A stretch of DNA of 27,512 bases from a virus. The notes under the pieces are model-generated. The model saw nothing but the letters and a program-made list of their open reading frames with translations, was not told the DNA's origin and did not search any database. The first letter of the stretch is position 1. Every line of letters begins with the position of its first letter. This document shows, in pieces, positions 2,084 to 25,046 of the stretch. The position numbers were made by a program, and so were the translations under genes. The DNA lies in the UHGV virus genome UHGV-0040380; one strand, given 5' to 3'.

Positions 2084-4486
2084 TCACGCCCATGTCGCAT
2101 CTATGTAGAACGTTGGAGATGTAGTGGTGGACCCTTCAATCGATATTTGTCCTGTTGAAGCATTAATGGTGGCCATTGCCATGCCAAATGAAACGCCATC
2201 ATCAGTGAACGGTACAGGGACATTTTTGGTTACTTTTGGTCTGCACCACCTCGGAAGCGTTAGAACAGTATTGCCATTCGCAAATGAAGTGGCTGCCAGT
2301 TTAATATTAATTGAATTGGCAGTTAAACTTGACGGTGCCTGTACTGTTACGTTTGTTCCAGCCCACCATTGAACAGCTGCTCTTGGCGTGTAATCAACAC
2401 GCGACCACCAGTCGATAATGGCAGAGCAGATAATTTCCGCATACAGACGATACCCTAACTGGCTTTGGTGAATGTCATCACGCAGAAGTGGGTCGTATTG
2501 CGTGTTGAAATACTCTGGATATGGGGCCGGGAGCTGGTGAGTTGTTGTTACACAAATGACGTTATTGCCATATTTCATCATCTGGCGTTTACCAGCCTCG
2601 CGTAACTCCGCAACACCATCGTAATTTGCTGATGGCTGACCAGCCCCTCCAATAAATGACTGGCTATACCACATCCACGGCTCAACCCAAACAGGTACAC
2701 GCCCGAGACTGTTGCAATATAAGACAAACTCATCTATCAGTGCCGCCATATAATCGCCGTTTTGGTTTCCCTGCCCTTCGTTAGTTCCGGCAACCATAAT
2801 AACGATGTAAGCATCACCCGGCCCCTGAGCCTTCAGGAGATCTAACTGTTGCCTCATTGTCTGTCCGGCAACCGCCTTGTTTACAATGCTATATGAACGG
2901 TGTCCGTTCGCTCCATCCATTAATTGCGGAATGTACGAGCTGAACGCAGAAATGAAATCCTCAGCTGTACTATCACCGTGGATAAGGATATTAAGTGGAG
3001 GCTTACAGTGCACACCATTATCAGAGGTATAGCTAGTCACGCCAGTTACTCGTACAATCGTATTGGGAGCACTACTATTAGCTACAAATCCTACCTCGTA
3101 AACGTCACCTACCGCCGAAGTATCATATGGCAGTCTAAAGCTAACACCATTCATTGTAATTACAGCCCAGTTCTTTGACTGTAATGCCACCCCAATAGTA
3201 GCCTTACCGGGAGCGTAGGACAGCAACCCTCCAGGAAGTGAGAATGGAGAACCGTTTACTACCGCGCCTCCAATTGCTTTCTGCCGTACATCCCATTGTG
3301 GAGCACCAGGAGCGCCGTAGAACATCACCCATCCACCTGAGCACCGTAACACAATACCCACTTCATTAAGAGTATTAGACTCAGCACGAATATGTCCTGA
3401 CACATGCTCACCTACTGCAATGGGTACGAACAATCCACGGGTAACAGAATCGGGTAGAGCAAATAGGGCTGCCGTTTCGGAGCTAGCGAATAATGGACCC
3501 TGAGGCGTAAATGAATCCCCGTCCACTGCATAGACAACACAATCAGACCATTCCACTCGCTTCATGCGAATAGGGTTTCGGTTGAGGATGGCCTGCTTAG
3601 CCAGATAATCCACTTCTCCACCGGTTGTTGTGAAATTAAGATGGGAAAACTCAAAAGTGCATTCACCTTCAAACTTCAGCGACTTATAAAGCGAGTAAAG
3701 ATCGCTGTCGAATTTAAGAATGACGTTTTTATCAACGATTACACGGGAGTTTTGCAGATTTCCTGCCTGTGAGGCCGTTCCTGGTATTGTATAAGTTTTC
3801 TTTGTTGCAGAGTGGCAAGGGAAATAAACATAGCCATAGAGATTTACACTCTCCACCCATGCTGCAACAACGTTTGATTGATTGTAAGATGGCATAACGG
3901 TGATTGGTATCGGCTCAAATTTATCCACACCACCGATCTTTTTCCATCCGTCAGGCTGAGCAAGAAGAATCAGCACTTCACTGGCAGAAGCACTCGGAGG
4001 GAGAATGGCTATAGGCTGCCCACTGTCATCCCAGCCAAAAATCATATTCCGGCGACTTGATACCTTTGGCACCAGGTTTACACTGTTTTCAGGAACCCTA
4101 AGCGTATTTCTCTGAAGAGCACCGATGTTGAACATCGCATGCTGAATAAGCATGGTCAGGTAGTCGAATGCATCCTCATGGACCTCTGCAAAAAATTTCC
4201 CCTGATTTCTTAAATCAGTTTCCTGCACTGCTGGAAGGTTACGAGTGATTGATATTGTAATGCCTGGCAAAACAGGAGATGACGTAATAACGCTTCCACC
4301 GGAAGATAAGCCAGCACCTGTAACCATGTAATCTGTCCCCAGGCTCATTGGAGAAACAAGACCGTCAGCGGTTATTGTGCTTACATCAAGATCTGTGTCT
4401 TTAAAAATTCTGAAAGTATATGGGAATGATGTCGTGACTCCATTCCCGAGATACTCATTGTGGCTGATTTCGGTTGAGACTGTCAT
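2084..4486 (-). CDS. Tail fibre/tailspike: T7 gp17-like N-terminal adaptor domain, central receptor-binding region, C-terminal SGNH/GDSL hydrolase (esterase) domain
   Basis: 800 aa. The N-terminal ~110 aa follow the T7 tail-fibre attachment pattern (YLGNG..FPYTF...DY...I.I.R......DL, recalled from memory). Residues ~497-690 carry SGNH blocks: HGDST (Ser codon at 2969-2971), VAGTNEG, DDIHQS. GGAGA 6 nt upstream of the ATG at 4486. Confidence 0.8.
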   Translation of the reverse strand: MTVSTEISHNEYLGNGVTTSFPYTFRIFKDTDLDVSTITADGLVSPMSLGTDYMVTGAGLSSGGSVITSSPVLPGITISITRNLPAVQETDLRNQGKFFAEVHEDAFDYLTMLIQHAMFNIGALQRNTLRVPENSVNLVPKVSSRRNMIFGWDDSGQPIAILPPSASASEVLILLAQPDGWKKIGGVDKFEPIPITVMPSYNQSNVVAAWVESVNLYGYVYFPCHSATKKTYTIPGTASQAGNLQNSRVIVDKNVILKFDSDLYSLYKSLKFEGECTFEFSHLNFTTTGGEVDYLAKQAILNRNPIRMKRVEWSDCVVYAVDGDSFTPQGPLFASSETAALFALPDSVTRGLFVPIAVGEHVSGHIRAESNTLNEVGIVLRCSGGWVMFYGAPGAPQWDVRQKAIGGAVVNGSPFSLPGGLLSYAPGKATIGVALQSKNWAVITMNGVSFRLPYDTSAVGDVYEVGFVANSSAPNTIVRVTGVTSYTSDNGVHCKPPLNILIHGDSTAEDFISAFSSYIPQLMDGANGHRSYSIVNKAVAGQTMRQQLDLLKAQGPGDAYIVIMVAGTNEGQGNQNGDYMAALIDEFVLYCNSLGRVPVWVEPWMWYSQSFIGGAGQPSANYDGVAELREAGKRQMMKYGNNVICVTTTHQLPAPYPEYFNTQYDPLLRDDIHQSQLGYRLYAEIICSAIIDWWSRVDYTPRAAVQWWAGTNVTVQAPSSLTANSINIKLAATSFANGNTVLTLPRWCRPKVTKNVPVPFTDDGVSFGMAMATINASTGQISIEGSTTTSPTFYIDATWA

Positions 4487-4590
4487 GTTAATTCTCCAGA
4501 TAGTCGCAGCACCCGTTGCGCCGCATATCCGGTTATTCTATTACCCGAAAAACCACATATGGATAGACAACCCATAAATACGAACAGATA

Positions 4591-4605
4591 TTACCTTTCA
4601 GGTGA
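4591..4605. promoter_or_regulatory. Operator-like 15-bp dyad TTACCTTTCAGGTGA (copy 1 of 3)
   Basis: Inverted repeat TTACC-N5-GGTAA with one mismatch in the right arm; lies in the divergent intergenic region between the tailspike and the SOS-box gene. Related copies at 4971-4985 and 21882-21896. Confidence 0.4.
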
Positions 4606-4642
4606 TTCGCAAAACGTGCTGGATAGCAAACAAATTATTTGC

Positions 4643-4662
4643 TACTGTATAAATATACAGTT
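4643..4662. promoter_or_regulatory. LexA (SOS) box
   Basis: TACTGTATAAATATACAGTT matches the enterobacterial consensus TACTGTATATATATACAGTA (CTGT-N8-ACAG with AT-rich core) at 18 of 20 positions; sits about 20 bp upstream of the RBS of the 4682-4939 gene and overlaps candidate -35/-10 hexamers (TTGCTA / TATTGC). Confidence 0.75.
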
Positions 4663-4681
4663 ATTGCATGGAGAAGATAAG

Positions 4682-4939
4682 ATGCAGCAGTATCACTATC
4701 CACTGGAAGACGGATTTACCGAAAGGATTCACACGCCGGGAGGCGTCAGGTCACTGGTGGAGGGATCGCACTTGATGAAATTACTCCGGGATCTCGATAA
4801 GGATGGATTTAATGTCGATGGCCCACTTGCCGAACTGACTGCACTGATTAACTACGTCACCAGCTCGCAGATGTCTATGCAGGATCTGCAAACACATCTC
4901 GACTATTGTGCCGAACAATTACGAAAACAAACCAGATAA
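4682..4939 (+). CDS. SOS-regulated small protein of unknown function (85 aa); candidate LexA-controlled antirepressor or moron
   Basis: ATG at 4682 preceded by GGAGAAG; opposite in orientation to all neighbouring structural genes; LexA box immediately upstream. No motif recognised in the sequence. The longer ORF-track start at 4559 would translate through the operator and has no SD. Confidence 0.5.
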   Translation: MQQYHYPLEDGFTERIHTPGGVRSLVEGSHLMKLLRDLDKDGFNVDGPLAELTALINYVTSSQMSMQDLQTHLDYCAEQLRKQTR

Positions 4940-4942
4940 GGT

Positions 4943-4985
4943 TTGAAATTACCAAATGGAGTGCTTATATTTACCTTTGCGGTAA
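4943..4985 (+). promoter_or_regulatory. Sigma70-like promoter (TTGAAA-17-TATATT) abutting operator-like dyad TTACCTTTGCGGTAA (copy 2)
   Basis: -35 TTGAAA (4943-4948), 17-bp spacer, -10 TATATT (4966-4971); the dyad (4971-4985) starts at the last base of the -10 hexamer. Confidence 0.4.
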
Positions 4986-5126
4986 ATTTACATCGCACTC
5001 CTCTTGTGCCATAGTAATCGGGCACTGGCAAAATCCAGTGCTGGGATTGGTCTCCCGGATTACTACAGAGTTAGTGCTACACTCATTGACGCCACATTGA
5101 GGTGGCTTATAGATGGAAATTTCACA

Positions 5127-5288
5127 ATGAAAAAAGCATTTGCTGCACTGTTCGTTTTGTTGTCTCTGGTAGCTTCAACTCAGGCCTTTGCCGGTCGTTG
5201 TCAGCACGACAGCGACACTGCTGCTGACGGCTCCCGCTGCGGTGGGCGTTCTGCGGATTCCCGCCCTGGCGGCGGTGGCATTCGTTAA
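5127..5288 (+). CDS. Small secreted peptide (53-aa precursor with a Sec-type signal peptide)
   Basis: MKKAFAALFVLLSLVASTQAFA has textbook n/h/c regions and an AxA cleavage site; predicted 31-aa mature peptide is G/R/D/S-rich with two Cys. The SD is weak and it is shorter than the ORF-track cutoff, so confidence is modest. Confidence 0.4.
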   Translation: MKKAFAALFVLLSLVASTQAFAGRCQHDSDTAADGSRCGGRSADSRPGGGGIR

Positions 5289-5311
5289 AAACAAGGCCGC
5301 GAAAGCGGCCT
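5286..5311 (-). terminator. Rho-independent terminator after the membrane-protein gene
   Basis: Stem AGGCCGC / GCGGCCT (5294-5300, 5305-5311) with GAAA loop; on the minus strand it is followed by TTGTTTTT (plus-strand A-tract 5286-5292). Confidence 0.6.
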
Positions 5312-5323
5312 GTGACATGTCAC
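5312..5323. repeat. 12-bp perfect palindrome GTGACATGTCAC (copy 1 of 3)
   Basis: Identical 12-mers at 5312-5323, 22855-22866 and 25120-25131; here it overlaps the TGA stop of the 5320-5616 gene and abuts the terminator hairpin. Confidence 0.6.
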
Positions 5324-5616
5324 GTTCCTTTTCTGAATGATAGCCGTTCGAAAAATGATGACATTCCACCGCAGACAATAGCAAAGATGATCCCACCAAA
5401 GAAGAGAAGGCCAGCCTGCCACCACTCCCACCGCCATACATCCACAGCACCAACCATACCAACAATCGCTCCAACAAATGGAATATAGCTCACGATGAAA
5501 GCAATGGGGGCTGCAATTATCCAGTGCAATCCCCACCATGATTCAAGCCCAGCCATAATTGCTGCCAACTGAAAAAGACCAACGACGATATAAACAATGA
5601 ATCCTATAGCTTGCAT
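5320..5616 (-). CDS. Small integral membrane protein (98 aa, three predicted TM helices), standalone gene with its own terminator
   Basis: AGGTGA SD 5 nt before the ATG at 5616; highly hydrophobic with W/G-rich loops; followed by a terminator; lies between the core-protein genes and the tailspike, a position not occupied in T7-type modules. Confidence 0.55.
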   Translation of the reverse strand: MQAIGFIVYIVVGLFQLAAIMAGLESWWGLHWIIAAPIAFIVSYIPFVGAIVGMVGAVDVWRWEWWQAGLLFFGGIIFAIVCGGMSSFFERLSFRKGT

Positions 5617-5628
5617 GTAGTCACCTAT

Positions 5629-5802
5629 TTACCCAGTAAAAATCAGAGGCCTCCCCTCAATAAGGCTTGCAACAAGAACTATTCCCTGCACAACAAAGAT
5701 GAACCAGCAAATAGCTTGAGTCTGAGGGTTAAGAAAATATTTGTAGCGGTCAATAAATAACAACCCACCAGAAATTATCACACTCAAAATAATTAAAAAC
5801 AC
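5629..5802 (-). CDS. Possible small membrane peptide (57 aa, GTG start)
   Basis: GTG at 5802 preceded by AGGAAG with 4-nt spacing; translation (M)FLIILSVIISGGLLFIDRYKYFLNPQTQAICWFIFVVQGIVLVASLIEGRPLIFTG has two hydrophobic segments; fills the gap between the 5812-8286 gene and the membrane-protein gene. Below the ORF-track size cutoff. Confidence 0.2.
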   Translation of the reverse strand: MFLIILSVIISGGLLFIDRYKYFLNPQTQAICWFIFVVQGIVLVASLIEGRPLIFTG

Positions 5803-5811
5803 AACACTTCC

Positions 5812-8286
5812 TTATTGCGGAGTGACATCCTGAGGTCGCCACCAGTATGTCTGATTAAACTCTTTCTTCGAACGTTGCTCCATTTTACGCAAATAGCCTG
5901 GTGAAAAATACTCCTGCATCTGGTTAAAGATCATATGATCGAGAGCCGCCTTTAAGTACCAGAGATTCGCACCGGGCATCAAACCTTTCCCCAGCTTCAC
6001 CAGATCACCACCAGTCTGCTCACTCTTCCCTTCCACAGCATTTAACGGTATGCCCTGAGCAATCTTCACTACGTCATCAACCAGACCAGCTACCGGGCCA
6101 AGCATCGACGCCAGCGCGCCGCTTCCGTACCTAGTGTGATCTGACAATAAAAAGTCACCGTAAAGGCCAAGGCCACCACCTTTCAGTAGAGCACCAAGCC
6201 AGAATTTTGCGGCACCTTCTCCTGTCATCTCTCGAGGATTACGACCAGACGCAAGGTCGTTAAGTTGCTGCGACAAAGCGCCAAGAATGGTCGTACTGGC
6301 AATAAACGTCGCAATATATGCCGCACGCCCACCAGCAGACGGCATACCCATAGCGCGTGACCAGTGACGCATAACAACCGAGATAGGGAACGATTTAAAC
6401 AGGAAAACACTTCTCGTTAATTCACCTTTCCATGTTCCACGCTGAATACCAGAACCGGTTATCAGTTGCTCACGAGCTCCCGGTGTAATAACAGCCATAT
6501 CAACTTCTTCAGTTACGGCACCGAGCAATTTACGCATTGCCTCAAATTTCACGCGCTCAGGCTCACCAAGATGTTTAACTGCTGAATCAGGGATACGCAT
6601 AATGCTTTCCGGTGTCAGCATCGTATTATTACCGTTCCCCCAGTCCTCCTGTTGCGCCAGCTTCCATACGCTCCAGTCTGTGTCAGTAATCCCTTTGCTT
6701 TTCAGGATACGAAAATCAGAGTCATCGAGGCTACGAAGGTCTGGTGTCCGTGACACTACTTCTCCCAGGCTTCCCATCATGGTTACGCCATAGGCGCGCT
6801 TGTGCGCATCTGACCATGCTGTAAGCCCACTGGCACGCATTACCGCCGTTGCCGCCCAACGAGACACTGACGGCCCCATATTATCCATCGCCCAGCGGTT
6901 AACGCTGCCAAGTAGAGATTCCATCGCCAGACCAGCGCGGCGCGCCCGCGCAAGTTCTGTACGGTTCGTTGGGTCCATAGCTTCAAGCTGGTTGCGGAAT
7001 AACTGGTTCATTGGAAGGTTGGTAACCTTCGCAGACAGATACATGGTTCCAAGATCAGAGAACGATGACAGCAACGCGGATCCGAGTCTGCTGGCAACCA
7101 GCCAGTTGCGGATATTGTCAGACCATCGCGCGATGTGCGGATTCGCTACAGGCTGTGTCTTTCCGGAAATAAAGTTGTACAGATTCTCTGTGTTGTTCGC
7201 CAGCCGCTCGACTTTACCGGTTTTACTCGGGTTAGCTGTTGCCGTTTCTGCCTTCACCTGATCAAGAAGAGAGCGGAAAACATGATCGGGGTTTGGGCCA
7301 TATGTTTCCACCAGTGCAATATCTTTACTGATACCTTCCAGGTGACCGACCATGATTTCCCATAGAGAGCGATCACCATAAAGTTGTTGATATTGGAGAT
7401 AGGAATCTGCATCTTTGAAATGTATCTGTCGTGATGCATTACCACGGTTAGCACGTGCGCCGGAAATTCGCATTCCGGTATCAGTAAGCTTATTCAGCCC
7501 ACCAGTAGCGATCGTGTTATAAGCCTCTCCAAGAAATGCAGACAACTCGGCATCGTTCATCAGTTGTCCATCGGCTCGGGTATAATATTTGCGATCCAGC
7601 TTACCTATAACATCGCCAACCCACTTATCCTTTGATACCGCCCCAACCTTTTCCATAGAATGATGTTGAGGGATCCCCCAGTTTTCGAGATAGCCAATGT
7701 CCCCACCAGCATCATTAAACCGGCGGCGCAGCAGCTCTGTAACTTCTCTCCACGCCTTAGCACCTTTTCTTGCTTTAGCATTGCCAGTATTTTGCCCCCG
7801 CATTTCATATACCAGGTCACGTACGCCCGCTTCATCTTCAAACAGACCAAAAAAGCGAGGATCAACTGCTTCGAATGCCTCCTGCAATTGACTCAATGCA
7901 TAATCACGGGTGGCTTTTGTTCTGGATTCAACAGAGAGGAAATTAGATTTACCGTCTGCATTAAAAGCTATAGTACGGTTAAGAGCGCCAAGTTTCCCAT
8001 CAGCCCCTTGATAGCTATTGATAAATTTATCCAATCTCTGACGCGCGGCTATAGTGAGAGCCACACGACGTTTCTTTAATGCCGCTTCTCGCTGTAATTC
8101 TTCAGATGCCAATTGTGCTGCTCGATATAGCCGCTCTGATTCGGAAAGTTGTCGCCACGACATCGGATCATCACGAGCAATGGAGCGCATATTTCGATAA
8201 ATGCGGTCTTCAATGTTCTGTATTTCTCGCGCCGTTAACGTGCGCTGCGCCGCCTGCTGGACCGCTTGTATACATTCCTGTCTCAT
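5812..8286 (-). CDS. Internal virion (core/ejection) protein, large
   Basis: 824 aa; last of three consecutive large proteins translationally coupled downstream of the tubular proteins, matching the position of T7 gp15/gp16-class core proteins; no enzymatic motif recognised. Confidence 0.55.
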   Translation of the reverse strand: MRQECIQAVQQAAQRTLTAREIQNIEDRIYRNMRSIARDDPMSWRQLSESERLYRAAQLASEELQREAALKKRRVALTIAARQRLDKFINSYQGADGKLGALNRTIAFNADGKSNFLSVESRTKATRDYALSQLQEAFEAVDPRFFGLFEDEAGVRDLVYEMRGQNTGNAKARKGAKAWREVTELLRRRFNDAGGDIGYLENWGIPQHHSMEKVGAVSKDKWVGDVIGKLDRKYYTRADGQLMNDAELSAFLGEAYNTIATGGLNKLTDTGMRISGARANRGNASRQIHFKDADSYLQYQQLYGDRSLWEIMVGHLEGISKDIALVETYGPNPDHVFRSLLDQVKAETATANPSKTGKVERLANNTENLYNFISGKTQPVANPHIARWSDNIRNWLVASRLGSALLSSFSDLGTMYLSAKVTNLPMNQLFRNQLEAMDPTNRTELARARRAGLAMESLLGSVNRWAMDNMGPSVSRWAATAVMRASGLTAWSDAHKRAYGVTMMGSLGEVVSRTPDLRSLDDSDFRILKSKGITDTDWSVWKLAQQEDWGNGNNTMLTPESIMRIPDSAVKHLGEPERVKFEAMRKLLGAVTEEVDMAVITPGAREQLITGSGIQRGTWKGELTRSVFLFKSFPISVVMRHWSRAMGMPSAGGRAAYIATFIASTTILGALSQQLNDLASGRNPREMTGEGAAKFWLGALLKGGGLGLYGDFLLSDHTRYGSGALASMLGPVAGLVDDVVKIAQGIPLNAVEGKSEQTGGDLVKLGKGLMPGANLWYLKAALDHMIFNQMQEYFSPGYLRKMEQRSKKEFNQTYWWRPQDVTPQ

Positions 8287-17012: not shown

Positions 17013-17024
17013 ATACACTCCTGC

Positions 17025-17046
17025 AATAAAGGGGCCGAAGCCCCTT
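17025..17046 (-). terminator. Rho-independent terminator downstream of the capsid gene block (T7 T-phi-like position)
   Basis: Stem GGGGC / GCCCC (17031-17035, 17040-17044) with a 4-nt loop; minus-strand T-tract TTTATT follows (plus-strand A-tract 17025-17030); 18 nt after the stop of the 17063-17407 gene and directly before the next RBS. Confidence 0.55.
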
Positions 17047-17062
17047 GTCTGATCCGCGAGGC

Positions 17063-21791: not shown

Positions 21792-21881
21792 ATCAATGAC
21801 TCCGTACGCAATTAAATTATTACCAATTTAACCACATATGATTTATTTATCGTAGACAGTTGACATTTAACGCACGAATTA

Positions 21882-21896
21882 TTACCTTTCAGGTAA
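21882..21896. promoter_or_regulatory. Operator-like 15-bp dyad TTACCTTTCAGGTAA (copy 3, perfect)
   Basis: Perfect inverted repeat TTACCT-ttc-AGGTAA; a consensus -35 hexamer TTGACA lies 16 bp upstream (21860-21865) on the plus strand, the strand that carries the tRNA. Confidence 0.4.
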
Positions 21897-22218
21897 CCAA
21901 AGAGTTCATTCCGGTTACTAACCTGACTGGCTTGTCGTTAAATTGAACTGGTGGAGTGAGCTTTTATTTTGAGCAGTACGGCGTATGGCACATGCGCCGA
22001 TAGCGGTCTGGATACGTTTAAGGGGCACCCTCCCTTGCTCGGGCAAACGAACCAGGTAGCCGGAATGTGCAAGTCGAGCGGTTTTATTCCGCGCACGGGG
22101 ATTCACCATCCCGGCGATTCGGTGTGACGCCTCGGAAGAGACGAGGGTACAACGATGAGAGCATTTATGGAGCCGCGACAAAGTGTGGTGCCTTAACAGG
22201 CTAAGTGCTCTCAGCGTT

Positions 22219-22295
22219 GTGGCATTAGCTCAGTCGGACAGAGCAACCGCCTTCTAAGCGGTTGGTCGCAGGTTCGAATCCTGCATGCCACGCCA
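22219..22295 (+). tRNA. tRNA-Arg (anticodon UCU, reads AGA/AGG), phage-encoded
   Basis: Cloverleaf folded by hand: acceptor GTGGCAT / ATGCCAC, D-stem GCTC / GAGC, anticodon stem ACCGC / GCGGT with loop CTTCTAA, T-arm GCAGG-TTCGAAT-CCTGC, discriminator G plus encoded CCA. Resembles E. coli argU but has a different acceptor stem. Confidence 0.9.
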
Positions 22296-24416: not shown

Positions 24417-25009
24417 TGATTACTATCCTGACGTTCTTTGAGTCGCTTCCTGGCTGCTGCTATGCGATCAGCAATTGTCACATTCACATTAACATCCAGA
24501 CGTTCTTTGAACGCGTTGACATCAACATGCTTACCAATCAGCTCAAGGTTCTTCACCTTGTCAGGCCATTTAATTTTTTTGAGGATTGTCTCTATCGAAT
24601 CCTCGTTCATGTTCATGATGGTCGATGACAGATCAAAGCCACTAAGCGTAGTGCGCCAGATTTTCGGCCACTCGCGGATTGGCTTAAGGCTCCCATCGTC
24701 GTTGAGGATGTCGATCACGTCCATCTGGTCGATCTCCACCAGGCGCATGAGAACGTAATCAGCACTGACGCGCATTCGTTTGTTGCGCTCCTCCATCAAC
24801 TCGGCAATCCGTTTTTGAATGCGTTCATCGCGCATCATGACACTGGCTTTAACTGCCGCTGTATTTGGGGAGAATCCTGCGTTAATCGCTGCCTGAGTCT
24901 GGTTTTCAGGCGTTTTGATGTATGACTGGCAATAAGCCTCCTGCATTGCTGTGAGCGGCTTAAATTGCGTTGATTTGCGTTTATAGGTTTTAGGTTCAGC
25001 AGGCATCAT
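24413..25009 (-). CDS. terS: Terminase small subunit
   Basis: About 198 aa from the ATG at 25009 (GGTGG SD); terminase small-subunit-type N-terminal HTH region (QTQAAINAGFSPNTAAVKAS). The ORF-track TTG start at 25087 would run through a terminator hairpin and direct repeats. Confidence 0.8.
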   Translation of the reverse strand: MMPAEPKTYKRKSTQFKPLTAMQEAYCQSYIKTPENQTQAAINAGFSPNTAAVKASVMMRDERIQKRIAELMEERNKRMRVSADYVLMRLVEIDQMDVIDILNDDGSLKPIREWPKIWRTTLSGFDLSSTIMNMNEDSIETILKKIKWPDKVKNLELIGKHVDVNAFKERLDVNVNVTIADRIAAARKRLKERQDSNQ

Positions 25010-25017
25010 AACCACCG

Positions 25018-25046
25018 TGGTAATAGTTACCGTTGTGGTAATAGTA
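25018..25046. repeat. Tandem direct repeats GTGGTAATAGT x2 (7-bp spacer) in the terS leader
   Basis: Identical 11-mers at 25018-25028 and 25036-25046, between the upstream terminator and the terS RBS. Confidence 0.5.

Follow-up and report, generated by a model that had tools for sequence, protein, structure and literature searches.

An epsilon15-like Escherichia coli prophage carries a LexA-boxed orthologue of the SPC32H antirepressor Ant

The gene at 4682–4939 is very probably ant of an epsilon15-like prophage, with the LexA box at 4643–4662 as its operator, and together with the repressor Rep they would constitute a LexA–Ant–Rep switch. The window, that is, the whole 27,512-nt stretch of DNA that was analysed (UHGV-0040380), contains the box and an intact open reading frame. 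The encoded protein is orthologous to a crystallised antirepressor, its position, strand, and LexA box are conserved in related phages, and a matching Rep is present in close relatives. The LexA–Ant–Rep switch of epsilon15-like podophages was reportedly published by Kim and Ryu in 2013 and then solved structurally by Kim et al. in 2016. A LexA-controlled Ant antirepressor is already known from SPC32H, and the finding is real, not new.

The ant gene and its product

The gene and the elements directly upstream of it are as follows.

4682–4939, plus strand: ant, 85-residue antirepressor, from ATG at 4682 to TAA at 4939; orthologue of SPC32H Ant, epsilon15 gp19, and PhiV10p24
4670–4673, plus strand: Shine–Dalgarno sequence GGAG, 8 nt upstream of the ATG; the six-phage alignment described below shows GCATGGAGA without variation
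4643–4662, no strand assigned: LexA (SOS) box TACTGTATAAATATACAGTT, predicted operator of the ant promoter; near-consensus, unique, and conserved in position
4620–4648, plus strand: putative ant promoter, with −35 TGGATA at 4620–4625, a 17-nt spacer, and −10 TACTGT at 4643–4648

The ant gene lies on the plus strand between the minus-strand gene of an 800-residue tailspike (2084–4486) and minus-strand virion genes (from 5812), as had been described in an earlier note on this DNA, which pointed to an 85-residue frame running against the surrounding late operon. The gene order of tailspike (minus), ant (plus), and virion genes (minus) is common to the window, SPC32H, epsilon15, phiV10, Tyrion, and BUCT711. 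A longer in-frame open reading frame begins at 4559, but is not conserved: epsilon15 and Tyrion have only six open codons before the ATG. The start is therefore placed at 4682.

A phmmer search of the PDB with the window protein returned a single match, 5D50 chain E, an 86-residue 'Anti-repressor protein' (E = 4.1e-47), with residues 2–84 aligned to residues 3–85. By tblastn, the window protein shares 88% full-length identity with what the SPC32H gene annotated ant encodes. In the SPC32H record (KC911856), this orthologue is labelled 'ant: anti-repressor protein' and occupies the same position and strand as in the window. The match to a solved structure at 88% identity settles the identity of the window protein. 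The same gene is labelled hypothetical as epsilon15 gp19 and as PhiV10p24. Identity to SPC32H is 78% at the nucleotide level and 88% at the amino acid level, a clear sign of purifying constraint on ant.

Profile searches place the protein in PHROG 450 ('unknown function'), with E = 9e-48 over 84 of 88 positions. The only other PHROG matches are to 15539 and to the C-terminal portion of an 'anti-repressor' PHROG. The Pfam search gave a sub-threshold match to DUF724 and nothing else at E ≤ 10, and the NCBIfam search gave no family. The lack of a model for Ant in these two collections explains why both the earlier note and RefSeq failed to place the protein. The gene is not an unrecognised one, as the note had it, but belongs to a published family represented by 5D50 chain E and PHROG 450. 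The protein is hydrophilic, and its sequence shows neither a signal nor a membrane segment.

Judged by homology, size, position and strand, and the LexA box, the window gene is a member of the SPC32H Ant family. The earlier note had guessed at an antirepressor from the combination of LexA repression, small size, and a location far from the immunity region; the 88% identity to a characterised Ant and the conservation of the box bear this guess out.

The LexA box

The sequence TACTGTATAAATATACAGTT agrees with the 20-nt LexA consensus TACTGTATATATATACAGTA at 18 positions, and its CTGT and ACAG cores are both intact. It is the sole site in the window with at most three mismatches to the consensus 20-mer, where none is expected (100 shuffles), so the near-perfect SOS box claimed in the earlier note is real. 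The 47-kb prophage locus of E. coli HN257 likewise contains one site with at most three mismatches, again with none expected (100 shuffles). The looser pattern CTGT-N8-ACAG has three copies in the window, where 0.46 would be expected; of these, the copy at 4643–4662 alone has an AT-rich spacer.

The weight-matrix scoring that the note proposed was carried out with an approximate LexA matrix, built from 20 E. coli SOS boxes known from the literature. On this matrix the box scores 27.6 bits, more than every training site (top one 27.3), and the next-best 20-mer in the window lies 17 bits below it. A gap of 7 nt separates the box from the GGAG and one of 19 nt separates it from the ATG of ant, a minor correction to the distance of about 20 bp to the ribosome-binding site given earlier. 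The box lies 157 bp upstream of the tailspike ATG, in agreement with the earlier figure of about 160 bp.

The box and the promoter in related phages

An alignment of the intergenic region between tailspike and ant was made for six phages. The motif TACTGT-N8-ACAGT is in register in this alignment and is followed by an invariant TTGCATGGAGA-N-GA-NN-GATG. The LexA box is in register in five phages and has the same position in phiV10, SPC32H, epsilon15, and Tyrion. The segment TGCTGGATAG, from which the −35-like TGGATA is taken, is invariant in all six. A sigma-70 consensus scan did not pick up the ant promoter hexamers, which are too weak for it. The putative −10 element TACTGT coincides with the left arm of the LexA box, and the operator would then overlap the promoter.

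In SPC32N, ACAG in the box is changed to AAAG. SPC32H and SPC32N differ at two bases over a 1.55-kb locus: one lies inside the tailspike gene, and the other is the change in the box, which lowers the approximate matrix score from 25.3 in SPC32H to 19.1 in SPC32N. This is reportedly the phage pair studied by Kim and Ryu, whose abstract is said to describe the box change in SPC32N as a mutation by which Ant becomes constitutive and the phage, in effect, lytic.

A weakened box is also seen in Klebsiella phage vB_KpnP_BUCT711 (locus L009, about 17020–17040, with ant at 17054). Its sequence, ATATGTATATATATACAGTA, has ATGT instead of CTGT as the left arm, and its approximate matrix score of 18.9 is as low as that of the SPC32N mutant box. 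Judged from this score, BUCT711, a sewage isolate, may express ant constitutively.

The host phage element

The ant locus of the window shares 95–98% nucleotide identity with E. coli phages phiV10, TL-2011b, ZX5, and phiv142-3; for phage vB_EcoP_ZX5, the identity across the locus is 96.7–97.6%. It is 77–80% identical to Salmonella phages epsilon15, SPN1S, and SPC32H and to Enterobacter phage Tyrion. These relatives are all members of Uetakevirus, the epsilon15-like podophages, so the window represents the part of such a prophage that holds the lysis, tailspike, virion, and terminase genes. By sequence comparison, the element is an epsilon15-like (Uetakevirus) E. coli prophage. E. coli HN257 is 100% identical to the window over 4480–5820, but is not its source: among complete E. 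coli genomes, none matched the window in full, and the best match reached 97.9% over 90%. Look-ups by exact protein gave no match either. An exact 69-mer from the window end had no match in species-representative genomes and matched 27 IMG/VR loci, of which none was colinear with the right end of the window (best matches below 500 bp, at 94–98% identity). Of the 5,426 complete genomes of E. coli, 559 gave matches to the ant region, among them strains of O157, O26, and O103.

Several further observations concern the element as a whole. In E. coli NADC1036, one Uetakevirus genome is present twice, in the chromosome (NZ_CP076264.1, 2792082–2815236) and as a separate 38,709-bp record (NZ_CP076267.1). 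This double record is consistent with an excised circular copy, that is, with spontaneous induction in the sequenced culture. In HN257, a second integrase, a RepA-family helicase, and an HTH regulator adjoin the lysis end of the prophage (locus L007, 176–3539). They probably belong to a separate small integrative element inserted in tandem at the guaA site. The window also contains a tRNA gene at 22219–22292 on the plus strand (Rfam, 73 bits), annotated as tRNA-Arg in HN257; it is located within the structural region, opposite in strand to the virion genes. It was the only Rfam hit at the gathering threshold in the whole window, with nothing near ant.

The tailspike, too, shows a feature of its own. 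Residues 503–680 of the 800 give a weak match to GDSL/SGNH hydrolases, below the Pfam cut-off, and RefSeq annotates the protein as an SGNH/GDSL hydrolase. This suggests a tailspike of the esterase type that modifies its receptor, rather than a beta-helix glycanase.

Rep, the probable repressor partner of Ant

No Rep is encoded within the 27.5-kb window, and the cognate Rep of this prophage is therefore deduced from relatives. The HN257 prophage encodes a 194-residue protein in the expected divergent immunity region. This protein is 42% identical to SPC32H Rep over its full length and matches 5D50 chain A with E = 4e-42. It contains two HTH regions, HTH_3 and a YdaS/Cro-like HTH, and no Peptidase_S24 domain. 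Rep equivalents are also present in phiV10, Tyrion, and BUCT711.

The Rep proteins fall into two types, one in phiV10, HN257, and Tyrion and the other in SPC32H and epsilon15, which are 41–46% identical to each other. Unlike Rep, Ant is 81–98% identical among the E. coli, Salmonella, and Enterobacter phages. This decoupling of Ant and Rep in conservation may be due to mosaic exchange of the immunity module.

The interaction of the two proteins has been described for SPC32H. In the account given in PMC9638917, which cites Kim et al. 2016, the DNA-bound form of SPC32H Rep is a tetramer; an Ant tetramer binds two Rep dimers and breaks the Rep tetramer. A passage of PMC9986798 adds that the C-terminal tetramerisation domain of Rep doubles as the Ant-binding domain. 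[quoted passage not shown] In addition, Mcc1229, a DNA-damaging bacteriocin (microcin), induced E. coli Uetakevirus prophages of the phiV10 species 21- and 47-fold (bioRxiv 10.64898/2026.05.26.727859), in keeping with SOS control by way of an antirepressor. An S24 cleavage domain is seen in neither Rep type (the domain search covered the E. coli type), and the reported SOS induction therefore still calls for an antirepressor.

Palindromes resembling Rep operators

Two palindromes flank ant, and two promoter-like elements lie close to them.

4539–4561, minus strand: promoter-like motif CATATGTGGTT-N5-GGTAATA(GAAT) upstream of the tailspike; adjoins the ant system and is not part of it
4590–4606, no strand assigned: Rep-operator-like palindrome ATTACCTTTCAGGTGAT between tailspike and ant; present in all aligned phages
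4943–4971, plus strand: sigma-70-like promoter TTGAAA-17-TATATT downstream of ant, found by the consensus scan and graded good/strong
4970–4986, no strand assigned: second Rep-operator-like palindrome TTTACCTTTGCGGTAAA, directly downstream of ant, abutting the sigma-70-like promoter

The pattern ATTACC-N5-GGTAAT, with at most two mismatches, has 14 copies in the prophage locus of HN257, where 1.3 would be expected. Its copies in the window and those listed for HN257 are the following.

Window: 4590–4606, 4970–4986, 21881–21897, 25008–25024, and 25026–25042
HN257 (locus L007): 33384, 33446, 35392, 35729, 35777, 36489, and 36551

The HN257 copies cluster around rep, with pairs flanking it, and others occur close to the genes for replication, to the terminase, and to the portal operon. 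Copies are also found on both sides of ant and by the start of the small terminase gene. In the epsilon15 record, a site upstream of gp19 and four others are annotated as 'repressor' binding sites. This distribution suggests that Rep may directly control several operons, beyond the early ones.

The downstream palindrome lies in the segment 4920–5070, which folds strongly as RNA (z = −4.8). A reading of this segment as an RNA structure was considered and rejected: in a four-phage alignment, the invariant part consists of the half-sites and the spacer varies freely. At 4970–4986, the TTACC and GGTAA half-sites are invariant and the 5-nt spacer is variable in phiV10, Tyrion, and Klebsiella phage BUCT711. 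Invariant half-sites with a free spacer are the signature of a protein-binding site, not of an RNA stem. The segment 4940–5070 as such is conserved in phiV10-like phages and Tyrion, and a conserved hairpin, GGCACTGG-N6-CCAGTGCC, is located at about 5021–5042, downstream of ant.

The promoter-like motif upstream of the tailspike has exactly two copies in the window, where none is expected. The second, at 21840–21818 on the minus strand, precedes the portal-side structural operon. A Rep-like palindrome is found 29–41 bp upstream of each copy, at 4590–4606 and 21881–21897, respectively, and the block 4535–4561 is invariant across six phages. The motif is a candidate for a late or Rep-controlled promoter element of the phage. 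In the direction of minus-strand transcription, the copy at 4561–4539 lies about 80–120 bp past the LexA box. The conserved motif and the palindrome next to it indicate that the tailspike probably has its own phage-controlled promoter, with the LexA box behind the motif.

Genes downstream of ant

In the window, the Bro-N gene that phiV10 and ZX5 carry is replaced by a two-gene moron region.

5127–5288, plus strand: 53-residue protein with a signal-peptide-like N terminus, phrog_14503 'membrane associated protein'
5320–5616, minus strand: 97-residue open reading frame, phrog_3075, followed by a strong minus-strand terminator-like hairpin at 5311–5294

The Bro-N proteins of the relatives are related to Ant itself. 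Tyrion gp20 (locus L002, 5726–6430), a Bro-N 'anti-repressor', is 38% identical to Ant at residues 153–230 (78 residues, E = 2e-19) and matches PHROG 450 at residues 151–232. The Bro-N protein PhiV10p23 (locus L001, 6771–7355) stops after about 31 residues of the Ant-like module. Since the whole of Ant aligns with the C-terminal ~80 residues of Tyrion gp20, the small Ant corresponds to a free-standing version of the C-terminal module of some Bro-N antirepressors. Because such Bro-N proteins lie directly downstream of ant, some phages carry two Ant modules in tandem. In the ZX5 study (2022, PMC9782041), the Bro-N protein ORF4 is named the anti-repressor, and the small LexA-boxed Ant orthologue is left as hypothetical.

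Proposed switch and alternative readings

The proposed switch takes LexA control and the Ant–Rep mechanism from the SPC32H literature, and by analogy the same steps would be expected for the phiV10-type Rep of E. coli. Host LexA would occupy the box, which overlaps the putative −10 element of the ant promoter, and ant would be silent in the lysogen. Upon DNA damage, RecA-stimulated self-cleavage of LexA would free the promoter, and the 85-residue Ant would be made. Ant, a tetramer in SPC32H, would bind Rep, a protein with two HTH regions and without a self-cleavage domain. The DNA-binding Rep tetramer would then be split into dimers held by Ant, Rep would leave its operators, and the lytic genes would be turned on. 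Against this model stand the absence of Rep from the window, the weakness of the promoter hexamers, and the divergence of Rep: the E. coli type is only 41–42% identical to SPC32H Rep, while Ant is 84–87% identical to the Salmonella Ants.

Some small prophage genes under LexA control are toxins. With this precedent, and with no family for the protein in Pfam and NCBIfam, the open reading frame could be taken for an SOS-induced toxin or another moron unrelated to induction. The toxin alternative raised in the earlier note is nevertheless rejected as extremely improbable, given 88% full-length identity to a protein crystallised in complex with a phage repressor, the hydrophilic sequence with no visible signal or membrane segment, and PHROG matches confined to 450, 15539, and the C-terminal part of the 'anti-repressor' family. 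The note had also raised the idea that the palindromic box works in both directions, repressing or blocking minus-strand transcription into the tailspike and lysis genes as well. The box does lie 157 bp upstream of the tailspike ATG, and minus-strand read-through from the virion operon must cross it. However, no sigma-70-like minus-strand promoter overlaps the box, minus-strand terminator-like hairpins at 5311–5294 and 4945–4928 precede it, and the tailspike has its own promoter-like motif beyond it, at 4561–4539, in common with a portal-side operon that has no LexA box. Moreover, LexA would be depleted in exactly the state in which late genes are needed, and a role of the box in minus-strand transcription is therefore very unlikely.

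A further alternative accepts the gene as an Ant orthologue, but one that no longer induces its own prophage in the E. coli lineage. Ant might act mainly in trans on co-resident Uetakevirus prophages, its own Rep being only ~42% identical to SPC32H Rep, or induction might proceed through a different antirepressor, such as the Bro-N type gene downstream of ant in phiV10, ZX5, and Tyrion. The conservation of Ant (81–98%) over Rep types that are 41–46% identical would agree with such a change of role, as would the Ant-like C-terminal domain of the Bro-N protein directly downstream in Tyrion (38% over 78 residues, E = 2e-19). In addition, overexpression of the ZX5 Bro-N ORF4 lowered lysogeny (PMC9782041). 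Yet the window has no Bro-N gene, with the 53-residue membrane protein in its place, and nevertheless retains ant and its LexA box intact and under constraint. An antirepressor would also still be required, as neither Rep type has an S24 domain (tested for the E. coli type). Loss of the inducing role is thus improbable, and the LexA–Ant–Rep switch is the preferred reading.

Beyond this switch, Ant may be a genus-wide 'master key' in a larger cascade that joins heteroimmune cross-induction to a feed-forward chain, a possibility that is tentative and on balance rather doubtful. Since Ant is conserved over the two Rep types, one SOS-induced Ant could cross-induce heteroimmune Uetakevirus prophages. 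The palindromes at 4590–4606 and 4970–4986 appear to put the tailspike–lysis promoter and the downstream plus-strand genes directly under Rep. If true, the chain would run from LexA through Ant to Rep, and from there to a second antirepressor (in relatives, a Bro-N protein with an Ant-like domain) and to the late and lysis genes. Such cross-induction would extend the antirepressor crosstalk already known (Lemire et al. 2011) and would not amount to a system of a new kind.

Comparison with known antirepressors

The closest known system is Ant of SPC32H and SPC32N (5D50 chain E), from the same genus, Uetakevirus, at 88% full-length identity and with 86 residues against 85 in the window. The two genes share their position and strand between tailspike and virion genes, an equal distance from the box to the Shine–Dalgarno sequence and the ATG, and a Rep-type palindrome upstream. 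The SPC32H antirepressor type is reportedly described in the abstract of Kim and Ryu as structurally distinct. Several differences are also apparent. The host is Salmonella for SPC32H and E. coli here, and the partner Rep in close relatives of the window is of the other immunity type, at 41–42% identity. The LexA box agrees with the consensus at 18 of 20 positions in the window and at 17 of 20 in SPC32H. Finally, the window has ~870 bp of additional moron DNA, on both plus and minus strands, after ant, whereas SPC32H leads straight into the next virion gene.

Coliphage 186 Tum (Shearwin 1998) and the Gifsy/Fels-2 proteins GfoA and GfhA (Lemire et al. 2011, PMC3121763) follow the same logic, with a non-cleavable repressor. 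Each of these small antirepressors is repressed by LexA, is encoded at a distance from the immunity region, and inactivates the repressor through protein–protein contact. However, profile searches of Pfam, NCBIfam, and PHROGs detected no sequence relationship between these proteins and the window Ant. Pfam includes the DinI family, which is related to the Tum C terminus. No Tum/DinI-family similarity of the window Ant was found in Pfam at E ≤ 10 or in NCBIfam.

The large antirepressors of the Bro-N/P22 Ant type (PHROG 130 and 1760; Tyrion gp20, PhiV10p23, and ZX5 ORF4) share the C-terminal module with the window Ant. In contrast to them, the window Ant has no Bro-N domain and is one third the size; the Pfam search found no Bro-N, AntA, or KilAC domain in it. 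The regulation also differs: the window Ant is predicted to be controlled by LexA, and the Bro-N/P22 Ant type by Mnt/Arc-type or Rep-type proteins.

Implications

The analysis offers little new biology, and its practical value lies in annotation. RefSeq and phage records list the E. coli orthologue (WP_001188252.1 in HN257; PhiV10p24) as a 'hypothetical protein', and the results on SPC32H seem not to have been transferred to E. coli phages. Recognising ant explains how such prophages can respond to DNA damage without a cleavable repressor.
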